Shown piece after piece: positions 1 to 10,830 of a DNA stretch of 10,830 nt. Every line of letters starts with the position of its first letter. Position 1 is the first letter of the stretch. The stretch covers positions 1 through 10,830 of the forward strand of contig JBIOKB010000029.1 in assembly GCA_044451405.1 (NCBI GenBank). Reading direction: 5' to 3'. The notes beneath the pieces are model-generated. The model made no database searches. It was not told the origin of the DNA and saw only the letters and a list, made by a program, of their open reading frames with translations. Both the position numbers and the translations under genes were made by a program. Origin of the DNA: Candidatus Babeliales bacterium. GTDB taxonomy: Bacteria; Babelota; Babeliae; Babelales; Vermiphilaceae.

Positions 1-89
1 CCCTGCATCCTATATATAAGGTATGGGAACCTGAGTATAAGGGGCTCTTGGGACATTAAAATTTCTAATATGGTATAGAAGAAAGGGAC

Positions 90-1007
90 ATGATGCAATT
101 GCTATCTGCATGGAAGGAGTCAATTCTCCTGTTTAAACCCTCCAATTTTAAGCTATTTCTCCTGGTTACCCTGAAATCTTTTATAGATACCCTTAAGGTA
201 TGGTTCAGGTACTGGTGGTGGCTTATTGGGGTAGTCCTGGTTGCTCCATACCTTATATGTGGCCTTCTTGATTATACTTTCCCCCTCACTGGTCAATGGT
301 TAGTGGGGTATGAAACAATATTTTTTATGCGGCAAGGTTTTTGGGCTATTTTTGTAGGTACATCATTTTCTCGTGACGCTTTGCTTATTTCTCCTGAAAC
401 AGCTTTTATGATTCGTATGGTAGTTGGTGTAAGTGTTACATGCTTATTAAGTTTGTTATACACCAGTCTTTATTTGAGTGTGCGACCATCTGTTGCTATA
501 AAAAATTGGGGTTATTTTAAAAATTATGGCAAACATGCTCTCTATATTTTTGCTTGGTTCTTGCTCTTACCTCAAACATTTATAATTACTGATTATGTGT
601 TTGGATTAGCTTCCTGGCCTCTTGTAATAATACTTGCAGGTATATCCTTTGTTATTATTTCTTCTATCAGTTTATTATATATAACGTTTTTATTAGATTC
701 AGACGCTTCATTAAAACAAGTAGCATTATCAGTGTTGCGTGCCATTAAAATGACAGTCTACAATCTTCCCTTTTTTATTCTTACTCTTTTAATGTTTTTT
801 ATTTTGTATCTCATAGTGCTTGCGCCGGGCATTCTGCTCAATCCTATTGAAATACTGGGAGGATCGCTGGTAACATTTCAACGGTGGTTTTATATCTTGT
901 ACATAGCCAAAGATATTTTTATTATTCTCCTTCTTGCCTGCTTTTTCGTTAACTATTACATTAAAAAAATTCACGATAACTATTCGTTATATTTTGGCTC
1001 TAAATAA
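90..1007 (+). CDS. Polytopic integral membrane protein of unknown function
   Basis: 305-aa ORF with roughly 6-7 long hydrophobic segments and a purine-rich RBS-like GAAAGGGA just upstream (start at 90 or 93). No recognisable catalytic motif. Confidence 0.75.
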   Translation: MMQLLSAWKESILLFKPSNFKLFLLVTLKSFIDTLKVWFRYWWWLIGVVLVAPYLICGLLDYTFPLTGQWLVGYETIFFMRQGFWAIFVGTSFSRDALLISPETAFMIRMVVGVSVTCLLSLLYTSLYLSVRPSVAIKNWGYFKNYGKHALYIFAWFLLLPQTFIITDYVFGLASWPLVIILAGISFVIISSISLLYITFLLDSDASLKQVALSVLRAIKMTVYNLPFFILTLLMFFILYLIVLAPGILLNPIEILGGSLVTFQRWFYILYIAKDIFIILLLACFFVNYYIKKIHDNYSLYFGSK

Positions 1008-1014
1008 GGAGAGC

Positions 1015-1746
1015 ATGATGCCATCAGCTCGTGTGGTCATACATACCCTCGTTTCCCGTTTTTTAATCGCACTCCTGATTATTATTGTAGCAATCCCCTT
1101 TGGTATCTTTTTGTTGTTACCTGCGCGCTGGCGTTACGATAATAGAGTGTACTTTTGGATGATGCATGTGATTTATATGATCTTGGTTAAAATTACTTTT
1201 TTACGTGTTACGTATAAAGGCCTTGATCATGTGCTCCAAAATGAACCGGCTATTATTGTCGCCAACCATCAATCATCATTAGATATTCCCTTAATTGGTG
1301 CGGTGTTTGGGTATTATCCGCATATTTGGTTAGCAACAACTGATTTATTAAAATCACCATTCTTCCGCCTTTTTTTACCCCGTGTTGCCGTAATGGTTGA
1401 TACATCAACGCCATTAAAGGCTATGAGATCATTAGTGCAAACACTCATGTTGATTGAAGGGAACACGCGTCATGCGGTTTTATTCCCTGAAGGGAGCCGC
1501 TATACCGATGGCCAGATCCATGATTTTTATCTTGGTTTTGTTATACTAGCCAAAAAAACAGGTCGTCCGGTTATACCGATGCGCATCTTTAATGCAAACA
1601 AAGTGTATCCACCCGATACATTTTGGGCGCAAAATTATCCGATTACCGTAGTTGTTGGTAAACCGATGATGATGCATGCAGGAGAAACTGAAGAAGCTTT
1701 TTGTGATCGTGTACGCCAGTGGTTTATTGAACAACGTGAGGGATAG
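1015..1746 (+). CDS. plsC: 1-acyl-sn-glycerol-3-phosphate acyltransferase (LPLAT/PlsC family)
   Basis: HX4D motif (ANHQSSLDIP), FPEGSR motif, 'PVIP' block and an N-terminal TM segment. Start moved from 934 to ATGATG at 1015/1018, which follows AAGGAG at 1006-1011. Confidence 0.9.
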   Translation: MMPSARVVIHTLVSRFLIALLIIIVAIPFGIFLLLPARWRYDNRVYFWMMHVIYMILVKITFLRVTYKGLDHVLQNEPAIIVANHQSSLDIPLIGAVFGYYPHIWLATTDLLKSPFFRLFLPRVAVMVDTSTPLKAMRSLVQTLMLIEGNTRHAVLFPEGSRYTDGQIHDFYLGFVILAKKTGRPVIPMRIFNANKVYPPDTFWAQNYPITVVVGKPMMMHAGETEEAFCDRVRQWFIEQREG

Positions 1747-1757
1747 AGGAATACGTT

Positions 1758-2750
1758 GTGGATATGTTGTTACGTTTTGCTTACAGTGCGGCTCTGCTTG
1801 TTACCATTCCCGTACTTATAACCGTTATCTGGTACCGCCTTATGTATTATAAAGGGGTGGTATACCGGTATCCACTGACTACTACGTTAGCCAAGCAGAG
1901 CAATAACAGACGGCATATACATACCTACATTCTTTTTGCATTACGCGCACTAAGCTTAACCATCTTGGCACTGTTGGTTGGTAAACCCCAGCTGGTTGAT
2001 TCTCGTTCACATGTTATGCTTGAAGGCATTGATATTATTGTCGTGCTTGATGTTTCTGGCAGTATGGGCATGCCGCACCATGCGGGTGATGAGCGCTCGC
2101 GTATTGATGTAGCAAAAGAAGAAGCGATCCGTTTTATTGATAAGCGTACCAATGATGCTATTGGGCTGGTGATATTCGGCAGCGATGCGGTATCCCGCTG
2201 TCCATTAACCGCTGATAAAGTGCTGTTAAAATCCATGATTCATGATATTGAAATTGGCGTGATCAATCCTGAAGGCACTGTGGTTGCAACGTCCATTATT
2301 GCAGCTGCTAATCGGTTAAAGCAATCACATGCAGCAAGCAAAATTATGATTTTGTTAACTGATGGTGAGCCCAGTGAGCATGATGCTGATCCAGAAGTTG
2401 CTATCACCATCGCTCAACAACTTGGTATTAAAATTTACACCGTTGGTATTGGTGATGATCAGGAAGTGCTTGTGCAGCATCCACTGTATGGCAGAATACC
2501 GATGCGCACTACCCTGAACAAAGGTTTGTTGACGACTATTGCACATCGCACCGGCGGCCAATTTTTTGAAGCAAAAAATGCACAGGATATGCGCACCATT
2601 TATGATACCATTGATCGCTTAGAGCGAGCGCCCATTGATACGCCAATCTTTAGTAATTATTATGATATTTTTATGCCATTTATATGGGCATTGTTACTGT
2701 TATTACTTGGTGAGTTGTTAGCGCGATCATTAATCTGGCTGAGTTTGTGA
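1758..2750 (+). CDS. batA: BatA-like VWA-domain membrane protein
   Basis: MIDAS DVSGS, 'IGLVIFG...CPLTAD', 'ILLTDGE', 'IKIYTVGIG', 'TGGQFFEA'; N-terminal TM pair and C-terminal TM. GTG start after AGAGGA. Confidence 0.85.
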   Translation: MDMLLRFAYSAALLVTIPVLITVIWYRLMYYKGVVYRYPLTTTLAKQSNNRRHIHTYILFALRALSLTILALLVGKPQLVDSRSHVMLEGIDIIVVLDVSGSMGMPHHAGDERSRIDVAKEEAIRFIDKRTNDAIGLVIFGSDAVSRCPLTADKVLLKSMIHDIEIGVINPEGTVVATSIIAAANRLKQSHAASKIMILLTDGEPSEHDADPEVAITIAQQLGIKIYTVGIGDDQEVLVQHPLYGRIPMRTTLNKGLLTTIAHRTGGQFFEAKNAQDMRTIYDTIDRLERAPIDTPIFSNYYDIFMPFIWALLLLLLGELLARSLIWLSL

Positions 2751-2757
2751 GTGAGTT

Positions 2758-3735
2758 ATGTGGGGAATTACGTGGGCATGTACGGCACATCTTATCTATA
2801 GTCCATTGTTACTTGGCGTACTGGGGCTGTTGCTGTATCGGTTACATCGGGTAAAACAGATAGTTGCGTTCTTGGCCGATGGCTTACAGGGCTTTTCTTG
2901 GATAAAGCAGTGGCTCAAGTTGCTACTCTTTTTTTTAGCCTTCTGTGCGATTTTTTGTGCGTTTTTACGCCCGCAATGGGGAAAGAAAGAAGAACGCATT
3001 GCACAACAGGGGCGTGATTTATTTATTGCGCTTGATATCTCCAAATCGATGCTTGCGCACGATGTTAAACCAAACAGATTGAAGTGTGCACAACAAAAAA
3101 TTAAACAGTTAGTACAGCAATTATCCTGTGAGCGCGTTGGCCTCATTCTCTTTTCTGGATCAGCGTTTGTGCAATGTCCGTTAACCTCTGATTATGCAGC
3201 GTTTTATATGTTTTTAGATCAGCTTGATGTAGAAACTATTTCTTCGGGCGCTACTGCACTTGATCAGGCAATTATGTATGCATTGCGTGCGTTTAATGTG
3301 GGGCCTGAGCGAAAAAACAAACTATTGGTTATTGTTACGGATGGTGAAGATTTTTCACAGAATTTAACGGAGGTAGCACATCAAGCGGCTCAGGAACGTC
3401 TGCACATATTTACGCTTGGTGTAGGAACCAAAGAAGGTGCGCCAATTCCATTGGTTGATATGCATGGCAAATCGCAAGGACATCAAAAAGATAGTAAAGG
3501 GGCGGTGGTAATTTCGCGTCTTAACGAGCAGATGCTGTCAAAGCTTGCTCATGACTGTGGCGGTACGTATATCACCATGAGCAACGATGATAGTGATGTA
3601 CGCAAACTTCTTAAGGAAGTTGCATCGTTTGAAAAAGAGACATTGGAAGATAAAAAAGTTACGCAGTATCATGATCAGTACCCATATTTTGTGGCCGTAG
3701 CGTTTTTCTTATTAGCACTAGAGTGGATCCTATGA
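2758..3735 (+). CDS. batB: BatB-like VWA-domain membrane protein
   Basis: 'RPQWG', MIDAS DISKSM followed by 'DVKPNRL', 'CPLTSDY', 'TDGED', 'GVGTKEGAPIP', 'ISRLNE'. Second VWA gene, directly after batA. Confidence 0.85.
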   Translation: MWGITWACTAHLIYSPLLLGVLGLLLYRLHRVKQIVAFLADGLQGFSWIKQWLKLLLFFLAFCAIFCAFLRPQWGKKEERIAQQGRDLFIALDISKSMLAHDVKPNRLKCAQQKIKQLVQQLSCERVGLILFSGSAFVQCPLTSDYAAFYMFLDQLDVETISSGATALDQAIMYALRAFNVGPERKNKLLVIVTDGEDFSQNLTEVAHQAAQERLHIFTLGVGTKEGAPIPLVDMHGKSQGHQKDSKGAVVISRLNEQMLSKLAHDCGGTYITMSNDDSDVRKLLKEVASFEKETLEDKKVTQYHDQYPYFVAVAFFLLALEWIL

Positions 3736-4598
3736 TGCGCATACTTATCATAAGCTGTATATGCATGCCGATGCATGCATGGTTTGAACATGGCCGTGCC
3801 GTAAATGCTGCTCATAGCGGTGATTGGCAGCGTGCACATACGCTGTTAACAACAGAGCTGGTGAATCATCCGCATGATCCATCAGTGGTGTACGATGCTG
3901 GTGTTGCTGCATACAAAACAGGTGATTATGAGCAAGCGCGCGCCTATTTTGATCATGTAATTTCTTTGCCACAGGCATCAGATCAGCTTAAAGAACGTGC
4001 TTATTTTAATGCGGGAAACACGCAGGTTGCACTAAAACAATTTGAGCAAGCCATTAAAAAGTATGAGCAGGCACTGTCTATCGATCCCCATGATGAGCAT
4101 GCGCGACACAACTTAGAGATAGTGAAAAAAATGCTCGAGCAACAAAAACAAGAACAAGACAAGCAAGAAAAAGAGAATGAAGAAAAAGAGAACAAAGAGC
4201 AGCAAGACGAGTCGTCAGAAGAATCTGAGAGCGAATCAGGAAGTGATGAGCAGCAGGGTGAAAGCAAGCAAGAAAAAAATAAAGAGCAAGCTGATACGAA
4301 AAATAGTGACGCGCAGAAAAAAGAACGTGATCAAAAAAAGCAAGAAGCTCAAAAACAGCAAACTGACAAAAAACAGAAAGAAGAACAGCAACAACAATCA
4401 GTAGCACAAGAAAAAGATAAGCGCGATAAAAAAGAGAGTGAAAAAGCAGCTGCGCAGCAGTCTGCCGTAAAACTTGATAAACAATTGCTCCGCTTACTCG
4501 AGCAACAAGAAAAGCATGATGCAGATATTAACAAGCAGATGATTAAAGCAACCGTTGGTAGTCATAAGGGTGATGCACATGATAAGCATTGTTGGTAA
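3732..4598 (+). CDS. batC: BatC-like TPR protein with Q/K/E-rich low-complexity tail
   Basis: Signal-like N-terminus, TPRs (YDAGVAAYKTGDYEQA; AYFNAGNTQVALKQFEQAIKKYEQALSIDP..ARHNLE), long Q/K/E tail and terminal Trp, typical of BatC. ATG at 3732 overlaps the batB stop (ATGA). Confidence 0.8.
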   Translation: MMRILIISCICMPMHAWFEHGRAVNAAHSGDWQRAHTLLTTELVNHPHDPSVVYDAGVAAYKTGDYEQARAYFDHVISLPQASDQLKERAYFNAGNTQVALKQFEQAIKKYEQALSIDPHDEHARHNLEIVKKMLEQQKQEQDKQEKENEEKENKEQQDESSEESESESGSDEQQGESKQEKNKEQADTKNSDAQKKERDQKKQEAQKQQTDKKQKEEQQQQSVAQEKDKRDKKESEKAAAQQSAVKLDKQLLRLLEQQEKHDADINKQMIKATVGSHKGDAHDKHCW

Positions 4599-6360
4599 AG
4601 CATGGTTCATCGGGAGCGTGCTGTTACTCAGCTCCTGCATGTATGCTACGGTAACACTCAAAGTTAAAGATCTTAATGGTATTGTGTTAAAAGAAGTAGC
4701 TGCAGGCTATCCGTGCACAATTGAATTAACCATTGATGATGCACAACGCCGTATGGAAAATCCGGAAATTAAGGGCCTCGATCAGTTTCATCTTGAAGGC
4801 CGTGAAACGAGCATGCAGATGATTAATGGTAAAACAACAGTTACTTATGGATTTCGTGCACGCTGCAACAAACCAGGATCATATACGATTGGGCCAGCAA
4901 AACTTTCTATAGAAGGTACAGAATATACATCAAATGTAGTGCCACTTACCGTTGTTGCTGCGCCCACGGCCAATGCACACACTGATGATACCACGGTATT
5001 TGCGCGCTTGCGCTGCACTAAAAAACAGGTGGTAGTTGGTGAAAAAGTTGGTGTGAGTATTCGTTTTTATTACACAAATCATGATTATTTGCTGCGTGAT
5101 GTTGGTAATCCCCCAGAAAAAGGCTATACGCGCAAAGAGGTACAAGGGCCATTTTCAGGCACCGAGGTGATTGATGGTGTGATGTATCATTATGTTGAAT
5201 GGACGTGGGATATGTATCCAACAAAACCAGGTGTACTCACTATACCTGCCTACAGCTTTGATTATGATACGCCTAAAACGGAAGGGCAGGACCATGTGTT
5301 TGCAGGATTCTCTCTCTTTTTTAATCGGCAACGCTATGATCGTCATCGAGTGTATTCAAATTCATGTGAATTAGAGGTTGATCACATACCAGAGGTAGAT
5401 AATGAAGCAGTGCAAGGAGTAGGTCACTGCACTGCATTTACCGCGCGTATAACACCTGCGCACGTTACACAAGGCGATGGCATGGTGCTTACGCTCGAGT
5501 TAACGGGCGATGCTGATTTTGATGCGGTTACTTTAAACTCATTGAAGCTGCCTGATGTATTTAAATGGTATGATTCACAAACATTACCAGTACAGGATGC
5601 TAAAGGTGGACAGCGGAAAAAATCATGGGAATATATTGTACAAGGGTTAAAACCGGGTACATTTGAAATTCCTGCACAACGTTTTACCTATTTTGATACA
5701 AAGAAACGTACGGTAGTTACGCTCGCTACATCACCACAGTCTGTTACGATTACATCTGCTTTGCAGGAAACCACGAACACTAAAAAATTAGCTGACGCCG
5801 AGTTGCCCCATCAAGAGCAGCAGCGAGCAGAAAACGAGCCTGTGGCTTCTCTTGCACAAGCTGTCGATATTGTCGATCCCTCAGGCCTCAGGCCCATACA
5901 TGAATCAGGGCAATGGTACGCACACCAAGAGCGATCAGTGCCATTGTGGTTGTATGTACTCTTAATGGCGTTGCCGATAAGTTTTGTAATCGCACGTTGG
6001 TTTTTAAATAATTACAGCGGATGGTTGCACGCAGTGGCACGTAAACGGTATCTCTTTAAACAAGCGCGTGCACAACTAGCACGGGCTGAACTTGTTGGTA
6101 ATGGTGCTGTAGTGTATCCACTCTTTATTTCTATCTTGAGTAGTTGTTTGTCAATTCCTGAATCCATGGTTACCGATGAGTTTATTGAGCAAGCATTTAA
6201 GAATGCAGGGTTAAACGATGCACAGTGTAATGCCTGGAAACAGTTTTTTGTACAAGCAGCAGCGTATGCATTTTATGCAGAAAATAATAAGCAACGAGCA
6301 CCAGATGATTTTTTTCAACAAGCTGCTGCATGGCTTGATGTGTGTGAGAAACAGTTATGA
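4579..6360 (+). CDS. batD: BatD family protein (beta-rich extracytoplasmic domains plus C-terminal TM)
   Basis: Signal peptide, BatD-like motifs (SMQMING, PGSYTIGPA, PTKPGVLTIP, PGTFEIPAQRFTYFD) and a TM near residue 460; position after batC. Start 4579 follows AAGGGTG (4573 is an alternative). Confidence 0.8.
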   Translation: MISIVGKAWFIGSVLLLSSCMYATVTLKVKDLNGIVLKEVAAGYPCTIELTIDDAQRRMENPEIKGLDQFHLEGRETSMQMINGKTTVTYGFRARCNKPGSYTIGPAKLSIEGTEYTSNVVPLTVVAAPTANAHTDDTTVFARLRCTKKQVVVGEKVGVSIRFYYTNHDYLLRDVGNPPEKGYTRKEVQGPFSGTEVIDGVMYHYVEWTWDMYPTKPGVLTIPAYSFDYDTPKTEGQDHVFAGFSLFFNRQRYDRHRVYSNSCELEVDHIPEVDNEAVQGVGHCTAFTARITPAHVTQGDGMVLTLELTGDADFDAVTLNSLKLPDVFKWYDSQTLPVQDAKGGQRKKSWEYIVQGLKPGTFEIPAQRFTYFDTKKRTVVTLATSPQSVTITSALQETTNTKKLADAELPHQEQQRAENEPVASLAQAVDIVDPSGLRPIHESGQWYAHQERSVPLWLYVLLMALPISFVIARWFLNNYSGWLHAVARKRYLFKQARAQLARAELVGNGAVVYPLFISILSSCLSIPESMVTDEFIEQAFKNAGLNDAQCNAWKQFFVQAAAYAFYAENNKQRAPDDFFQQAAAWLDVCEKQL

Positions 6361-7076
6361 TTAAAAGTATAAAACTCACGATAATGTTGATGCTCGTGTG
6401 TGCAGGAACGCATCTTGTTGGTGCACCAACTAACCAGGAGATTTTTTTACAAGCAAATGCTGCGTATAGAACACATGATTATGAAAGAGCGCTTGCGTTG
6501 TATGATCAGATATCCAATAAAGGGCCTGTTGTTTGGTACAATATGGGTAATTGTGCCTATCAATTAAAGCGATATCCGTATGCGTATATATATTGGAAAA
6601 AGAGTGAACAGGGCGCATCGTGGGCGTTGCTCAATGATGCTGAGCATAATCTTGCATTGGTAGCGCATCCCGATGAACCAGTATCCATGTATAACCATAG
6701 TGCACATATGGTACGTATGTATGTGCAGTGGAGTTCGTTGTGGTGGCTGCAAGTGATGCTATTACTTATCTGGTGCGTATTCTTGTTGTTGTATGTGCAT
6801 CGTACGCTCCGTTTTTTGCAGCCATTGGTATTGCTACTTGTTTGTTGCTGTGGTATAGCTCTCAAGGGTAAGTATACTGACATGGGATTAAGAAATGGTA
6901 TTGTTGTGCATAATCAAGCACCGGTATATACAGGTCCAGATACACAGTTTTATCGTATAACGATGCTTGATGAAATGGCTACGGTTACCGTAGTGCAGCA
7001 AGATAGAGATTGGTATAAGATTTCGTATAAAAATCAGGTAGGCTGGATGCCTGCGAGTGTGATTGCGAGCGTGTAA
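6357..7076 (+). CDS. batE: BatE-like TPR + TM + SH3-like domain protein
   Basis: TPR (FLQANAAYRTHDYERALALY; WYNMGNCAYQ), two TM helices and a C-terminal bacterial SH3-like segment (VYTGP...WYKISYKNQVGWMP). ATGA overlap with the batD stop. Confidence 0.8.
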   Translation: MIKSIKLTIMLMLVCAGTHLVGAPTNQEIFLQANAAYRTHDYERALALYDQISNKGPVVWYNMGNCAYQLKRYPYAYIYWKKSEQGASWALLNDAEHNLALVAHPDEPVSMYNHSAHMVRMYVQWSSLWWLQVMLLLIWCVFLLLYVHRTLRFLQPLVLLLVCCCGIALKGKYTDMGLRNGIVVHNQAPVYTGPDTQFYRITMLDEMATVTVVQQDRDWYKISYKNQVGWMPASVIASV

Positions 7077-7077
7077 A

Positions 7078-8076
7078 GTGAATATTAAGATCTCATTACA
7101 AAATGCGGGGAAAATTGCGCTGATACTTGGCATGCTCAGCATGCTCATGAGCATAATACTTATTATGTATCAGTGTCGCTTTTTCAAGCAAGAAATTGAA
7201 AAGATGATTCAATTACAAGATGATTATCGCAATCATCTTGTAGCCGTTAATAAAGTGTTGCAGGATTACAATAAAATAAAGGAACGTTTAGACGCTTTAG
7301 AATCAAACGATCAAAAAAAAAAAATTCTGAAAGATAGTGACGCGCTTGCATTCAACGGGTTCCCACAAGGAGCACAAGTTTTTTCAAGTGATGATACTGA
7401 TGAGGAACATCAAGAATCCTTTGTTGCTATTAATCGTGATTTAGAATATCTCAAGCAATCGACGGTTTCCTATTTTAAACAGCGGCAGATGAATCTTGTA
7501 TTAAATCGCCTTAATTTAGATGATTGGTCCGAGTATACTGATCAACTGCGCGCATCACATAAGCGCCACGTACCACGCAAACGGCGTACATCACGCAGCA
7601 AACGAGTGTCGCTTGCTGAACGGCGCATTGAGCGTATACGTCCGGCAGAATATGTGCAAGAAGCAAAAGATTTATCTTTTGTATGGCCTATCGATCGTTC
7701 TCAATTTTGGTTAAGTTCTCGCTTCGGGCCACGGCGTAAAGCAAACGGAGCGCGCGGGTTCCATTATGGCGTTGATATGGCAGCAGTAAAAGGTACTCCA
7801 GTATATGCAGCAGCAAGCGGTGTGGTGATTCAAGCATACCGTTCACCAGGCTATGGCAATACCATTGTTATTGCGCACAATCGCAAATATCGTACACGGT
7901 ATGCGCATTTAAATTCTATACATGTGAAAGTTGGGCAAAATGTGCACAAAGGCGATTTTATTGGCAAAGTTGGTGCAACGGGCCATGTGCGGAGTAAGTA
8001 TGGCAATGCGTCACACTTGCATTTTGAAGTGTGTGCATTTGGCAAGCAAGTTAACCCGTTGTATTTCTTGAGCTGA
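7078..8076 (+). CDS. Membrane-anchored M23 family metallopeptidase (peptidoglycan endopeptidase)
   Basis: N-terminal TM plus coiled coil. C-terminal M23 domain with SSRFGPR, HYGVD (HxxxD), GYGN, YAHL, HLHFE (HxH) and VNP. Start uncertain: GTG 7078 chosen, with 7063 and 7132 possible. Confidence 0.9.
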   Translation: MNIKISLQNAGKIALILGMLSMLMSIILIMYQCRFFKQEIEKMIQLQDDYRNHLVAVNKVLQDYNKIKERLDALESNDQKKKILKDSDALAFNGFPQGAQVFSSDDTDEEHQESFVAINRDLEYLKQSTVSYFKQRQMNLVLNRLNLDDWSEYTDQLRASHKRHVPRKRRTSRSKRVSLAERRIERIRPAEYVQEAKDLSFVWPIDRSQFWLSSRFGPRRKANGARGFHYGVDMAAVKGTPVYAAASGVVIQAYRSPGYGNTIVIAHNRKYRTRYAHLNSIHVKVGQNVHKGDFIGKVGATGHVRSKYGNASHLHFEVCAFGKQVNPLYFLS

Positions 8077-8105
8077 TTGACGGCAGTTCTGACTCACGTT
8101 AAACT
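8077..8105 (+). promoter_or_regulatory. Putative sigma70 promoter for lepB
   Basis: TTGACG (8077-8082), 17-nt spacer, TAAACT (8100-8105), about 43 nt upstream of the lepB ATG. Confidence 0.55.
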
Positions 8106-8148
8106 CCGTAACAATCCAAAAGTTATTTAGATAGTCATAAGGATATGC

Positions 8149-9174
8149 ATGTCGTATAAATTTTCTCCCTATAAACGTAACAGCAGCGGCGGTTTTTTAA
8201 GCACGGCTAAAGAACTGGTAGGCTTGCTTATTGTCGTATTTTTAATTCGTACGTTTGGCTTTGGCTTATATCAAGTTCCAACCGGATCCATGGAAGTTAC
8301 CATGCTTGTTGGTGAGCGCTTTTTTGCAGATAAATTCACCATTCTTTTTGCAAAACCATCCAGAGGTCAAATTATTGCATTTAATGATCCACTCTTTCCG
8401 TATTCTACCAATCCGGTAATACGTCTGTTTCAGGAATATGTGTGGGGCCCATCAAATTGGACAAAACGGGTCATTGGTATTCCAGGCGATACCGTGCGTG
8501 GCGTGATAGAAGATGGCAAGCCGGTTGTGTATGTGAATGATAAAAAACTGGATGAACCATATGTTAATAAGTATCCACTTATTGCGTTGTGGGTTGATGA
8601 TCCGGTGAAGTTGCGTGAGCAAGCAATGCAGGAGACGCAACAGTTAATTGCGGCGCATCGTCTTGATGCATCACAAGCAGATGCCTTTGTAAGTTATATC
8701 TTGAGTCATTATTGGATGTATCGTCCCTATGATCCATCACGTTCTTTAGAAGACCAACCATTTAATAGAATTCTTCCTGATCGTGTAGTGCGCGTTCCAC
8801 TTCCACAATCAACAGAACCAACTCCGGGATTTGCTGTAACCCCAGAAGGGTTTGTCTTACAAGAGCCCTATGTTCCGGTGCCTGATCATGAAGTGGGGAT
8901 GCAAAAGCAAGGTGCGAGCCATTGGAATGGTACCGATGAGTTTTATGTTGAGTTGGGCAAAAATCAATATTGGCTCATGGGTGATAATCGGCGCGGCAGT
9001 AAAGATTGTCGTTTCTTTGGCCCTATTGATGGGCGCTTAATCCATGGCAAAATCTTATTTAGAATCTGGTCAAGCGATAGTAGCGAATCATGGTGGATTT
9101 TAGATTTACTCAAGCATCCCATTGATTTCTGGAAGCGCATGCGCTGGTCTCGCTTCTTCCAGTTCATCCATTAA
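8149..9174 (+). CDS. lepB: Signal peptidase I (S26)
   Basis: TM followed by VPTGSM (catalytic Ser), KRVIGIPGD (catalytic Lys) and box E 'MGDNRRGSKDCRFFG'. AAGGA RBS upstream. Confidence 0.95.
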   Translation: MSYKFSPYKRNSSGGFLSTAKELVGLLIVVFLIRTFGFGLYQVPTGSMEVTMLVGERFFADKFTILFAKPSRGQIIAFNDPLFPYSTNPVIRLFQEYVWGPSNWTKRVIGIPGDTVRGVIEDGKPVVYVNDKKLDEPYVNKYPLIALWVDDPVKLREQAMQETQQLIAAHRLDASQADAFVSYILSHYWMYRPYDPSRSLEDQPFNRILPDRVVRVPLPQSTEPTPGFAVTPEGFVLQEPYVPVPDHEVGMQKQGASHWNGTDEFYVELGKNQYWLMGDNRRGSKDCRFFGPIDGRLIHGKILFRIWSSDSSESWWILDLLKHPIDFWKRMRWSRFFQFIH

Positions 9175-9177
9175 ACC

Positions 9178-9205
9178 TTGATCTACAAGAGATTTATGCT
9201 ACATT
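9178..9205 (+). promoter_or_regulatory. Putative sigma70 promoter with extended -10, for rhodanese and possibly the tRNAs
   Basis: TTGATC (9178-9183), 16-nt spacer, TG-n-TACATT (9197-9205). Confidence 0.4.
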
Positions 9206-9244
9206 TATAGAGCTTTTGTTTCAACCTTAAAATAAGAATATATC

Positions 9245-9745
9245 ATGAACCAATTAACCCGTTTATTTCGCAGTCTTAGTGGTTTAGCACTTGTAGGTTT
9301 GCTTGCAAGTTGTAGCTGCGGTTCAAAAGTTGAACAAAAACGCAGCGGTTTAGTGGTTATCAATGTTCTTGATAAAGAGGTGTATGACGATTGTCATATC
9401 AAGGGTTCAGTGAATGTGCCATTTACTAAGTTGAGCGAATATGCCCAAGGCCTTGATCCTGAAACAGCAGAAGTTGTTGTATATTGTAGTAATTATATGT
9501 GCTCGACCAGTGGACATGCATGCAAGCAGCTTATGAAGATGGGCTTTAAGCATGTGTGGGCATATGAGGGAGGTACTGCTGAGTGGTACCAAATGGGACT
9601 TCCGGTTGAAGGGCCATGTAAAAACTCATATTTAATACAAAAAATTATGCCCCCACGGCATGAGGGCGAGCAGGCCATAGCGATTATTACGACACAGGAA
9701 CTGGCAGAAAAAATGCATGTGAGCGCGGCAAAGCCCAGCCATTAA
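9245..9745 (+). CDS. Rhodanese-like domain lipoprotein
   Basis: Lipobox-like LLASC after a hydrophobic stretch. Rhodanese motifs 'Y..CHIKGSVNVP', 'VVVYC' (active-site loop), 'MGFKHVWAYEGG..EW' and 'GLPVE'. Confidence 0.85.
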   Translation: MNQLTRLFRSLSGLALVGLLASCSCGSKVEQKRSGLVVINVLDKEVYDDCHIKGSVNVPFTKLSEYAQGLDPETAEVVVYCSNYMCSTSGHACKQLMKMGFKHVWAYEGGTAEWYQMGLPVEGPCKNSYLIQKIMPPRHEGEQAIAIITTQELAEKMHVSAAKPSH

Positions 9746-9765
9746 TAGTATATAGAGGGGCGCCA

Positions 9766-9823
9766 GCCTGACGAAGTTTAATACTTCCTTGGGTTTGACT
9801 TCGAAGTAAAAACGTAGACAGGC
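9766..9823 (+). repeat. Half copy (hairpin 2 only) of the tRNA-associated structured repeat
   Basis: GCCTG-A-CGAAG-TTT..TACTTC...GAAGTA..AAA-CGTAG-A-CAGGC. Same architecture as 9994-10052 and 10265-10320. Confidence 0.6.
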
Positions 9824-9894
9824 GGCATAGCCAAGTGGTAAGGCATGGGTCTGCAAAACCTTGATCCCCGGTTCGAATCCGGGTGCCGCCTCCA
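9821..9894 (+). tRNA. tRNA-Cys (GCA)
   Basis: Acceptor stem GGCGGCA/TGCCGCC, D arm GCC-AAGTGGTAA-GGC, anticodon loop CTGCAAA, T arm CCCGG-TTCGAAT-CCGGG, discriminator T, encoded CCA. Confidence 0.97.
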
Positions 9895-10052
9895 TACTTT
9901 GCCTTTTCCACGATGCTTAACAAGAGCTGTGAAGGCTACGTATGGCAGGCCAAACTACGCCTGATGATGATTGACATAAAAAAGGCAAAGTATGCCCTTC
10001 ATAGCCTACAGCTTGCTCGTGTAATTCTTCGGTAGTAGAGGCGAAGTAGGGC
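9892..10052 (+). repeat. tRNA-3'-anchored structured repeat, copy 1
   Basis: 15-bp perfect inverted repeat 9893-9907/9980-9994. Conserved blocks GCCT...GGCTACG-NN-TGGC..GCCA...AGGC..AG-NN-TGCCC.TCATAGC...GCGA.G..GGGC, shared with 10170-10320. Confidence 0.75.
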
Positions 10053-10086
10053 AAAAAAGTAAGTAGTTAGTGGTTGAAATTAATGT

Positions 10087-10172
10087 GCCGAGGTGGCGGA
10101 ATGGTAGACGCAAAGGACTTAAAATCCTTCGGGCTTTTGCCTGTGCCGGTTCGAGTCCGGCTCTCGGCACCA
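10087..10172 (+). tRNA. tRNA-Leu (TAA)
   Basis: Acceptor stem GCCGAGG/TCTCGGC, anticodon arm AAGGA-CTTAAAA-TCCTT, long variable arm GGGC-TTTT-GCCT, T arm GCCGG-TTCGAGT-CCGGC, ending ACCA. Confidence 0.97.
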
Positions 10173-10320
10173 ATCTACGCCTGCATCGGGAAAGACTTCG
10201 ATGTTAAATTGGGCTACGATTGGCTACGCCAGTCTCTTTAACGGAATGACTAAAGGCGTAGATTGCCCCTCATAGCTCAGCTAATCTTCGTAGTTATTCT
10301 CTCGCAAGCGACGAGTGGGC
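10170..10320 (+). repeat. tRNA-3'-anchored structured repeat, copy 2 (leader of the GIY-YIG gene)
   Basis: 12-bp perfect inverted repeat 10171-10182/10254-10265, with the same conserved blocks and order as copy 1. Confidence 0.75.
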
Positions 10321-10344
10321 AGTCTGAGTGGCAAAGATATTGAT

Positions 10345-10593
10345 ATGTTCTATGTATATTTTCTTAAATCTCTTAAAAATTCTAAACAAGCATATATTGG
10401 CTATTCTACTAATGTAGAAGATCGCCTTGAAACACATAATTCCGGTAGATCGATTCATACAGCAAAATACAGACCCTGGGAATTAATCTACTATATTGCT
10501 TTTAAAAATTCTGGTGAAGCGAGGGAATTTGAAACATATTTAAAAACACCTTCAGGAAAAGCGTTTGCTCTCCGGCGATTATTACCAAAATAA
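10345..10593 (+). CDS. Stand-alone GIY-YIG nuclease (SLX1/UPF0213-like, 82 aa)
   Basis: YVY...YIG motif, conserved Arg and His (RLETHN), 'T.KYRPWELIY', and metal-binding Glu (AREFETYLK). ATG 10345 is preferred over GTG 10315, which lies inside the repeat hairpin. Confidence 0.9.
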   Translation: MFYVYFLKSLKNSKQAYIGYSTNVEDRLETHNSGRSIHTAKYRPWELIYYIAFKNSGEAREFETYLKTPSGKAFALRRLLPK

Positions 10594-10604
10594 ATTTATC
10601 AATC

Positions 10605-10662
10605 CTGTTCGTCCTGAACCTGACAAAGTAGTGTGCCAAAAGCACACTAGGGTATCGAACGG
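10605..10662. repeat. Nested palindrome (REP-like element or terminator-like hairpin) downstream of GIY-YIG
   Basis: Outer stem CTGTTCG/CGAACGG, inner perfect 8-bp stem TAGTGTGC-CAAAA-GCACACTA. Confidence 0.55.
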
Positions 10663-10690
10663 CATCTATTTATTAAAAAAAAGATACCAT

Positions 10691-10830
10691 ATGTGGCCAA
10701 GTTTTGCCTTATTATTACTCATCAACTCCAATCATGAAATCTTATTATTACGTCGCATAAATACCCCTTTTTGCAACCACTGTTACTCATTACCTGGTGG
10801 TAAAATAGAAGTTGGGGAGACTGCCACTCA
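10691..10830 (+). CDS. Nudix hydrolase, 5' part (runs off the window)
   Basis: Own translation: MWPSFALLLLINSNHEILLLRRINTPFCNHCYSLPGGKIEVGETAT. 'ILLLRR' and 'LPGGKIEVGET' are the start of a Nudix box (GX5E). Confidence 0.85.
   Translation, partial: MWPSFALLLLINSNHEILLLRRINTPFCNHCYSLPGGKIEVGETAT

Follow-up and report, generated by a model that had tools for sequence, protein, structure and literature searches.

Palindromic bubble-hairpin elements at tRNA and tmRNA 3' ends and their association with a small SLX1-like GIY-YIG gene in Candidatus Babeliales and other bacteria

The REP/BIME-RAYT systems combine bubble palindromes, which occur in alternating orientation and in mosaics, with one enzyme gene that is flanked by copies and with many copies that lack a gene. 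IS200/IS605 elements work through folded single-strand hairpins and insert 3' of a short target that is read by guide pairing beside the hairpin foot, and the 3' ends of transfer RNA (tRNA) and transfer-messenger RNA (tmRNA) genes are established landing sites of integrases. A system built around a different enzyme is the Ssn family, i.e., small single-domain GIY-YIG proteins (CDD cd10448) encoded by genes that are flanked by hairpin repeats; according to the main text of the paper describing it, the Ssn nuclease binds the hairpin as single-stranded DNA (ssDNA), cuts only ssDNA, and does so beside the repeat, and the Neisseria members modulate transformation (Chenal et al. 2025, PMC11893778). 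In their Discussion these authors liken the layout to REP/RAYT and IS200/IS605 (PMC11893778). This paper describes a structured element that occurs twice, each time directly behind a tRNA gene, in a stretch of 10,830 nucleotides (nt) from a Candidatus Babeliales bacterium (assembly GCA_044451405.1, contig JBIOKB010000029.1, positions 1 to 10,830; hereafter the window), and that precedes a gene for an 82-residue GIY-YIG protein.

Both copies are members of a widespread family: small palindromic DNA elements located at tRNA/tmRNA 3' ends. The reading that we favour, at a probability of about 0.55, is that of a selfish DNA element comparable to REP/BIME or Ssn, which resides at tRNA 3' ends and has an SLX1-like mini-nuclease as its partner. 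The family is new in its anchoring to the CCA with which tRNA and tmRNA genes end, in the hairpin foot where this CCA pairs with TGG, in the inverted pair of bubble hairpins A and B, and in a helix that competes with the first of these. The literature searched, which left most subscription journals outside, contained no prior account of the element and none that connects tRNA/tmRNA with small GIY-YIG genes.

The family was delimited by searching a profile of 20 members of the protein family against 185,579 species genomes, which returned at least 555 relatives, and the best 80 loci (designated by L numbers) were analysed. Their proteins, at 46-61% identity, originate from 17 named phyla, among which are Dependentiae and several candidate phyla (Saccharimonadota, Doudnaibacteriota, and a Gracilibacteria metagenome-assembled genome (MAG)). 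For 65 of the 80 loci, ARAGORN located an upstream RNA gene, either a tRNA (15 isotypes) or, in 16 of these 65, a tmRNA, which lies on the same strand as the nuclease gene and ends 67-381 nt before it; the density at which the other 28 tRNA genes occur in the loci (1.21 Mb) would give 0.37 of 80 by chance. Rfam added a tmRNA in L005, bringing the count to 66 of 80. A fragment made up of T-arm and CCA stands directly before the element in L019, L010, L025, L050 and L056, and L012 and L019 end at a contig edge.

The 65 spacers display one common architecture. A covariance model (R1) was derived from an alignment of 16 short copies from other genomes, and was searched against the window plus the 80 loci (1.22 Mb). 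It gave a plus-strand match ending 0-400 nt before the gene in 76 of the 81 sources, the window included; three of the other five (L021, L030, L061) have a visible short form, and L031 and L040 hold fragments only. Of the model matches, 58 lie no more than 6 nt from a tRNA end; the tRNA's own CCA is the start of 51 of them, one starts a base later, and six start directly after the CCA. Further tRNA genes number 29, and by eye at least 8 of them are followed by a gene-less copy, oriented like the tRNA (a strict two-motif filter flags 4 of 29), namely the tRNA-Cys of the window, four tRNAs in L033, tRNA-Lys in L036, tRNA-Ser in L049 and tRNA-Val in L021. Element-like sequence stands behind each of the five tRNA genes in L033 (a Babeliales MAG; 5008-10640). 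The first-pass annotation of the window, made from its letters only, had anticipated further copies in other genomes, their enrichment at CCA ends and at small GIY-YIG genes, and the coexistence of gene-bearing with gene-less copies, and all three were borne out by these searches. Two loci show variations on the theme. L078 (Geobacteraceae) has two element copies, at 9778 and 12007, each after CGCCACCCCA-CCA, with no tRNA detected; these may be short 3' fragments that were carried along. In L006 (10697-10730), a perfect hairpin, GTCATTTC...GAAATGAC, stands behind tRNA-Pro, with TGGCAAGGCCA after it; this may represent a short variant with a different first strand.

The element starts with a strand S1, CCA-x1x2-C-TTC-GC, that begins at the tRNA's own CCA and is followed by a variable small stem-loop. 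The second strand, S2 (GC-TWC-G-x2'x1'-TGG), pairs with S1 to form hairpin A, consisting of a 6-bp foot that contains the CCA, a 3x3 pyrimidine bubble and an inner stem. Immediately 3' of S2 lies C-NNN-GCCA, and about half of the copies repeat CCA-x1x2 there and can form a small hairpin H with S2. Beyond a variable stretch comes S3 (GC-GAA-G-x2'x1'-TG), a perfect complement of S1, and then hairpin B, TGCCCnCC-GWA-GC...GC-GAA-GGnGGGCA, with the foot GCCCnCC/GGnGGGC, a 3x3 purine bubble, a GC/GC step and a loop of 4 to about 50 nt; the gene starts 4-250 nt further on. S1 can pair with either S2 or S3, and the dinucleotide after the CCA covaries with two different partners.

Pairing was counted in the 40 best plus-strand copies, using an alignment fitted to hairpins A and B. 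The structure with both hairpins is 94.2% paired, as compared to 76.0% in shuffled alignments (0 of 500 as high) and 33-44% in slid controls. The foot of hairpin A, CCA included, is 99.6% paired with two-sided changes at five of its six pairs, and pairing in hairpin B is 90-98% family-wide. The bubble of hairpin A is TTC/TTC in 25 of the 40 copies and TTC/TAC in 9; that of hairpin B is GAA/GAA in 17, GTA/GAA in 6, GAA/GTA in 4 and ATA/GAC in 3. The CCA:TGG pairing, which may have a use in targeting, is present in 32 of the 40 copies, with the foot beginning after the CCA in six; in L053, CCG:CGG compensates for it. S1 and S3 pair at x1 in 38 of the 40. Five loci (L001, L003, L013, L022, L060) are permuted, in that a local S1:S3 hairpin is followed by hairpin B and then by S2, and the competition for S1 is kept.

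That hairpins A and B might refold into a single long stem (S1:S5, S2:S4) was considered and rejected, as this stem is 86.8% paired with covariation not above that of shuffles. A ribozyme was rejected as well: CUGAUGA occurs in copy 1 of the window only, and the Rfam scans contained no ribozyme family. In Rfam 15, tRNA and tmRNA were the only matches (window 9000-10830 at E<=10, ten loci at E<=1, and twelve loci at the gathering score); no Rfam family covers the element.

Within the window, tRNA-Cys(GCA) (9821-9894, plus strand; ARAGORN, Rfam tRNA 63.8 bits) carries the gene-less copy 1, which extends on the plus strand over 9892-10053 including the CCA, or 9895-10053 from the base after it. 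The gene-bearing copy 2, also on the plus strand, follows tRNA-Leu(UAA) (10087-10172, plus strand; ARAGORN, Rfam tRNA 59.3 bits) and occupies 10170-10321 including the CCA, or 10173-10321 from the next base. Model R1, built from other genomes, matched both copies and nothing else in the window: copy 1 with 46.9 bits (E 7e-8), and copy 2 partially (10170-10270, 24.1 bits, E 0.011) because its hairpin B has a long loop. The likeness between the two copies exceeds chance. These coordinates agree with the first-pass description of two tRNAs that each have an element of about 150-160 nt at zero spacer after the CCA, and the blocks listed there were found at their positions in the sequence. Copy 1 is gene-less as described, with 33 nt only between it and tRNA-Leu; the gap between copy 2 and its gene had been given as 24 nt and is 23 nt (10322-10344), the ATG lying at 10345. 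The proposed scheme of conserved and variable blocks was right about the blocks themselves, and had missed the CCA in hairpin A, the mutually exclusive S1:S2 and S1:S3 pairings, and the near reverse complementarity of hairpins A and B.

In copy 1, hairpin A (9892-9944, plus strand) has the foot CCATAC/GTATGG, the bubble TTT/TAC and then GCCTT/AAGGC, and the terminal CCA of tRNA-Cys (9892-9894) doubles as its first three bases. Hairpin H (9943-9952, plus strand) reads TGG-CAGG-CCA, and the S3 strand, AGGCAAAGTA(TG), lies at 9983-9994 (plus strand) with its partner at 9893-9904. Hairpin B (9993-10053, plus strand) has the foot TGCCCTTC/GAAGTAGGGCA with one T.T mismatch, a 3x3 bubble ATA/GAA, then GCCT/AGGC and a 31-nt loop; it aligns to model positions 64-93, and its fold in isolation is weak (z -1.75). 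Folded as DNA, hairpin A of this copy reaches -10.4 kcal/mol (z -3.7) and the S1:S3 domain -21 kcal/mol (z -5.35). Copy 2 repeats this plan with other letters. Its hairpin A (10170-10223, plus strand), of which the tRNA-Leu CCA (10170-10172) is the start, consists of the foot CCAATC/GATTGG, the bubble TAC/TAC and then GCC/GGC, with a 30-nt insert (DNA fold -8.9 kcal/mol, z -2.5); hairpin H is TGGC-TAC-GCCA (10221-10231, plus strand), S3 is AGGCGTAGAT(TG) (10254-10265, plus strand), and hairpin B (10264-10321, plus strand; bubble ATA/GAC) was assigned by alignment to copy 1 and the family. The outer helix is TACTTTGCCT/AGGCAAAGTA in copy 1 versus ATCTACGCCT/AGGCGTAGAT in copy 2, a difference of four compensatory pairs.

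Some sequence around the copies resembles parts of them. CTWCG boxes are concentrated at the locus, 16 of the 24 in the 10.8-kb window falling within 9772-10293. Four CTWCG/CGWAG boxes lie at 9772-9817, just upstream of tRNA-Cys, where 9784-9811 is a 71% direct repeat of 10181-10208, a part of copy 2; model R1 has no match at 9772-9817, which may, with uncertainty, be a decayed piece of a further copy. In copy 1, the CCA of hairpin H is followed at 9950-9963 by CCAAACTACGCCTG, which resembles the tRNA-Leu junction of copy 2, CCAATCTACGCCTG (10170-10183), and looks as if it were a second S1 set after an internal CCA.

The gene downstream of copy 2 (10345-10593, plus strand) encodes a single-domain, SLX1/UPF0213-like GIY-YIG protein of 82 amino acids (PF01541, E 1e-16), as the first-pass annotation had proposed with its minimal GIY-YIG gene. 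A GTG at 10315 would give a 92-residue open reading frame (ORF), of which PF01541 covers residues 11-82; the ATG at 10345, and with it the gap of 23 nt, was taken as the start because all homologues begin there (MFYVY...). Residues Y5, Y17, R27, H31, N32 and E63 are invariant or nearly so in the family alignment, and on the basis of the superfamily we take them to be the catalytic set. The AlphaFold model is one compact domain with a mean pLDDT of 94, for which Foldseek gave At-HIGLE and Slx1 as best matches (E 1e-4 to 1e-3, TMq 0.70-0.75), followed by UPF0213 proteins; UvrC and I-TevI are far weaker fold matches (I-TevI E 1.4). Similarly, phmmer against the PDB returned an SLX1 homologue (E 2e-4) and UPF0213 proteins (E 3e-4). 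For its closest relatives, at 73-88% identity, metagenome contigs are the only known source. No match to the window protein was present among the PHROG families, NCBIfam contained nothing useful, the ESM Atlas gave generic GIY-YIG clusters only, and of the PADLOC defence models only candidate PDC-S14 was matched, twice and each time partially (about 19 bits, 33 residues). In L039 (Gracilibacteria; gene 10001-10246) there is an in-frame TGA at codon 34, and translation table 25, in which TGA is glycine, gives the full 82 amino acids; since the gene is intact only with this reading, it is a working gene of that host.

Several features of the loci look like traces of recent events in the DNA. In 12 of the 81 sources the gene stands between direct repeats of 16-107 nt, and these are perfect in L019 (54 nt), L030 (40 nt), L044 (84 nt) and L063 (26 nt); at six loci the downstream repeat copy begins between -1 and +16 nt from the end of the stop codon. 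The repeat period is 338 nt in the unrelated L017 (4503-5000), L019 (166-557) and L063 (9513-9876), and 348, 358 or 361 nt in the three loci L028, L059 and L030. The flanking repeats begin at differing points of the element, a pattern that would arise if a unit of gene and element integrated into a copy already in place, or from a copy of more than unit length. In L033, nearly identical sequences of 130 nt stand after two different tRNA-Ser genes and end right after hairpin H. A 20-nt tRNA-Arg 3' end is found three times in L044 (2047-2623), where the perfect 84-nt repeat, ending in that sequence, brackets element and gene. In L056 (9799-9887 and 3257-3616) the element and gene are located on a tmRNA 3' fragment, 6.4 kb downstream of the intact tmRNA, as at the far end of an inserted island. 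Decay is visible as well: the second, seemingly gene-less copy of L049 is followed by a decayed gene remnant of 33 amino acids (5421-5519), and L060 has a 36-residue gene fragment (10282-10389) downstream of its intact gene. On a tree of 80 proteins the type of host RNA changes 34 times (minimum 14, shuffled mean 44.8) with phyla intermixed, and one starred sister pair, L064 and L018, both Dependentiae, has a tmRNA versus a tRNA-Ala host.

If the element is a selfish DNA, the following course of events can be envisaged. The gene would lack a promoter of its own, and its expression would depend on transcripts that start at the promoter of the tRNA or tmRNA and read through. Its product would recognise the bubble hairpins as folded single-stranded or as extruded DNA, comparable to the recognition of their hairpin repeats by the Ssn nucleases and of branched DNA by SLX1, and would nick near them. 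Repair or recombination would then copy the element, or a unit of about 340-360 bp that comprises the gene and part of the element, to other tRNA ends, with the TGG:CCA pairing marking the junction. In the window, copy 2 at tRNA-Leu would be the gene-bearing copy and copy 1 at tRNA-Cys a gene-less one. A more far-reaching version, which we regard as doubtful, would make this an undescribed class of minimal mobile element that finds every tRNA and tmRNA via the CCA by means of a TGG guide built into a bubble hairpin, and that spreads as the 340-360-bp unit, perhaps through a circular or tandem intermediate, leaving gene-less copies behind.

Structured RNAs usually tolerate many more G.U pairs than are seen here: in 711 pair cells of hairpins A and B, G.T (6) and A.C (3) are about equally rare. 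Moreover, since hairpin A approximates the reverse complement of hairpin B (TTC versus GAA bubble), a B-type hairpin can form on both DNA strands, and model matches occur on the minus strand too (77.6 bits on the plus versus 50.7 on the minus strand in L059; 85.4 versus 49.0 in L055). Pieces of the element are located downstream of the gene in at least 12 sources, and isolated B-type hairpins occur elsewhere. These points, together with the gene-less copies behind other tRNAs, favour a role at the DNA level; an RNA role is possible as well.

It is possible, at odds clearly below even, that the element is an RNA, co-transcribed so as to form the trailer (3') of the tRNA and at once the leader (5') of the mRNA for the nuclease. 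In it, hairpin A would hold the CCA end until processing. Cleavage from the tRNA, mRNA stability and translation of the nuclease would be controlled by hairpin B and by the alternation of S1:S2 with S1:S3; gene-less copies would be leftovers of gene loss, as the 33-residue remnant behind the apparently solitary copy of L049 suggests. In addition, the 3x3 GAA/GAA bubble might form a stable motif in RNA. A transcript that is made and read from one strand has no need of the reverse complementarity between the hairpins or of minus-strand matches, nor does it explain copies and pieces downstream of the gene, some of them away from any gene or tRNA. Copy 1, so close to tRNA-Leu, is the leader of nothing, and the alternative S1:S5 and S2:S4 pairings do not covary beyond shuffles. 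Sequestration of a Shine-Dalgarno sequence in hairpin B was rejected as a general rule, because at most loci no such sequence is placed there. Finally, the characterised relative SsnA does not bind RNA, as stated in the Ssn paper (PMC11893778).

Less probable, and in our view unlikely, is a domesticated pair, in which the nuclease, like SsnA with NTS in Neisseria, cuts incoming or exposed hairpin ssDNA and thereby shapes recombination or transformation at tRNA/tmRNA loci, known hot spots of island integration, without any movement of the element. The kind of protein and the position of the gene between hairpins are as in NTS-ssnA-NTS, going by the main text of the Ssn paper (PMC11893778), and the island-like tmRNA fragment of L056 and the repeated tRNA 3' ends of L044 would suit such a role. 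The patchy occurrence in 17 named phyla at 46-61% identity, the host switches between sister lineages and the perfect flanking repeats look mobile, however, and there are one to five copies per locus here, versus hundreds. That the likeness is due to chance or to the composition of tRNA flanks, with the gene an unrelated neighbour, would fit a window with only two copies, whose identity of 72% (MAFFT) is inflated by gaps and whose full-length RNA folds are unstable and give uninformative minimum-energy structures (z -2.4 and -1.95), but it is refuted by a model from other genomes that finds both copies, by 65 of 80 loci against 0.37 expected, and by covariation that surpasses 500 shuffles.

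Several observations weigh against the selfish DNA element that we favour. The fixed co-orientation with the tRNA and the start at the CCA, together with the absence from the plus strand between the tRNAs and the gene in the window of promoter-like or terminator-like sites (consensus scan), fit an RNA role too, and two exclusive pairings that both covary with x1x2 are the expected look of an RNA switch. In five of 40 loci (L011, L032, L037, L041, L077) the 3' strand of hairpin B contains a Shine-Dalgarno-like AAGGAGG, 9-16 nt before the ATG. The fitting of the alignment to hairpins A and B favours both in the pairing counts, the S1:S3 helix is 77% paired overall in that alignment, partly as a result of misalignment, and hairpin B of copy 2 on its own folds no better than shuffles (z -0.86). 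As the 80 loci were picked by their likeness to the subfamily of the window, the tRNA/tmRNA association may weaken in the wider family. The protein tree is poorly resolved, with 2 of 77 inner branches starred, so that "hopping" between hosts rests on few well-supported pairs. Moreover, tblastn of the window protein against phage and plasmid collections gave no match, and hence no transfer vector is known. All checkable predictions of the first-pass reading held, and we consider it partly supported, with its enzymology and mode of spread inferred.

The remainder of the window consists of a plus-strand run of genes for an acyltransferase, two VWA proteins, a TPR protein, BatD, a TPR-SH3 protein, an M23 peptidase, signal peptidase I and a rhodanese protein, downstream of which lie tRNA-Cys, tRNA-Leu, the small GIY-YIG gene and the start of a NUDIX gene. 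The VWA, VWA, TPR, BatD and TPR-SH3 genes make up an upstream Bat-like cluster. The TPR protein gene (3723-4598) contains lysine/glutamate-rich repeats with a period of 15 nt, AAGAAAAAGAGAA-like, at 4145-4520, and signal peptidase I (8149-9174) is unusually long with 341 amino acids and has 55-58% identity to proteins named after Candidatus Dependentiae/Babeliales. Behind the GIY-YIG gene, a structured stretch at 10604-10662 (plus strand) has the stem CTGTTCG/CGAACGG around a hairpin AGTGTGC-CAAAA-GCACACT, and the DNA fold of 10594-10690 reaches -11.9 kcal/mol (z -2.75). It has no T-run and no match to model R1, and the consensus scan found no plus-strand terminator there; it may be a terminator-like 3' end, and its membership of the element is uncertain. 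A domain scan of 12 window ORFs confirmed the earlier statement that the window is without integrase or transposase, and a repeat of a tRNA 3' end is absent from the window.

Should the favoured reading be correct, it would provide a function and a natural substrate for a large unstudied group of 80-residue GIY-YIG proteins, as well as a partner structure that is defined in sequence and open to bench tests. The 3' ends of tRNA and tmRNA would then anchor a nuclease-linked palindromic element as well, and the presence of long, structured spacers in the tRNA operons of little-known bacteria, Dependentiae among them, would be accounted for. In the more far-reaching version it would be one of the smallest autonomous mobile elements known, present in at least 17 named phyla. 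Small site- and structure-specific single-strand nucleases are wanted as tools, as noted in the Ssn paper (PMC11893778), and a family with a conserved, modular hairpin code would widen the set of such enzymes. Furthermore, one covariance model could allow annotation pipelines to flag these elements.

Among published systems the Ssn family comes closest, and the element can be classed as an Ssn-like or REP/RAYT-like partnership of nuclease and hairpin repeat. Like the Ssn proteins, which are single-domain GIY-YIG proteins of 80-95 amino acids, the window protein is small, and its family shares the hairpin-forming inverted repeats around the gene, found here upstream in 76 of 81 sources with pieces downstream in at least 12. 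It differs from Ssn in the conserved 3x3 bubbles, the inverted A/B pair and the CCA-end anchoring of the hairpins, and in a protein fold that is nearest to SLX1/UPF0213. No match to the published SRM search motif lies closer than 1 kb to the gene in any of the 81 sources (shuffled flanks average 1.25), and the words tRNA and tmRNA are absent from the main text of the Ssn paper (PMC11893778). Its Supplementary Data 4 lists Rhizomicrobium palustre and Terricaulis silvestris with a cd10448 homologue and Geomonas paludis without one (PMC11893778); the first two species carry relatives of the window protein, and Geomonas paludis has one at a tmRNA (L079). The analogy with REP/RAYT, drawn in the first-pass annotation and in print for the related Ssn/NTS system (PMC11893778), extends to the imperfect bubble palindromes with their alternating orientation and mosaics, the one partner enzyme gene with copies on its flanks, and the gene-less copies. 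Unlike REP/RAYT, the enzyme is of the GIY-YIG and not the HUH type, and the copies are anchored at tRNA ends and not scattered between genes; no HUH Y1 transposase is encoded among the 12 window ORFs, and in the 80 loci the GIY-YIG neighbour is present by construction.

The CCA:TGG foot might, judging from its covariation, play the part of the IS200/IS605 guide; the window has neither TnpA nor TnpB, and the gene lies outside the A/B pair. SLX1, At-HIGLE and the YhbQ-like UPF0213 proteins are the nearest sequence and fold matches of the window protein. SLX1 cuts branched DNA according to entry titles, whereas the window protein has 82 amino acids, no RING domain and no Slx4-like partner in sight, and its genomic context is specific to the subfamily. 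Homing endonucleases of the I-TevI/Seg type differ from this single 82-residue domain in combining a nuclease with a DNA-binding domain and in their long double-stranded target. Finally, islands borne by integrases use the same target genes, and the repeated tRNA and tmRNA 3' ends of L044 and L056 resemble them, but here there is no integrase, the junction lies after the CCA and not inside the tRNA, and the unit measures about 0.1-0.4 kb.

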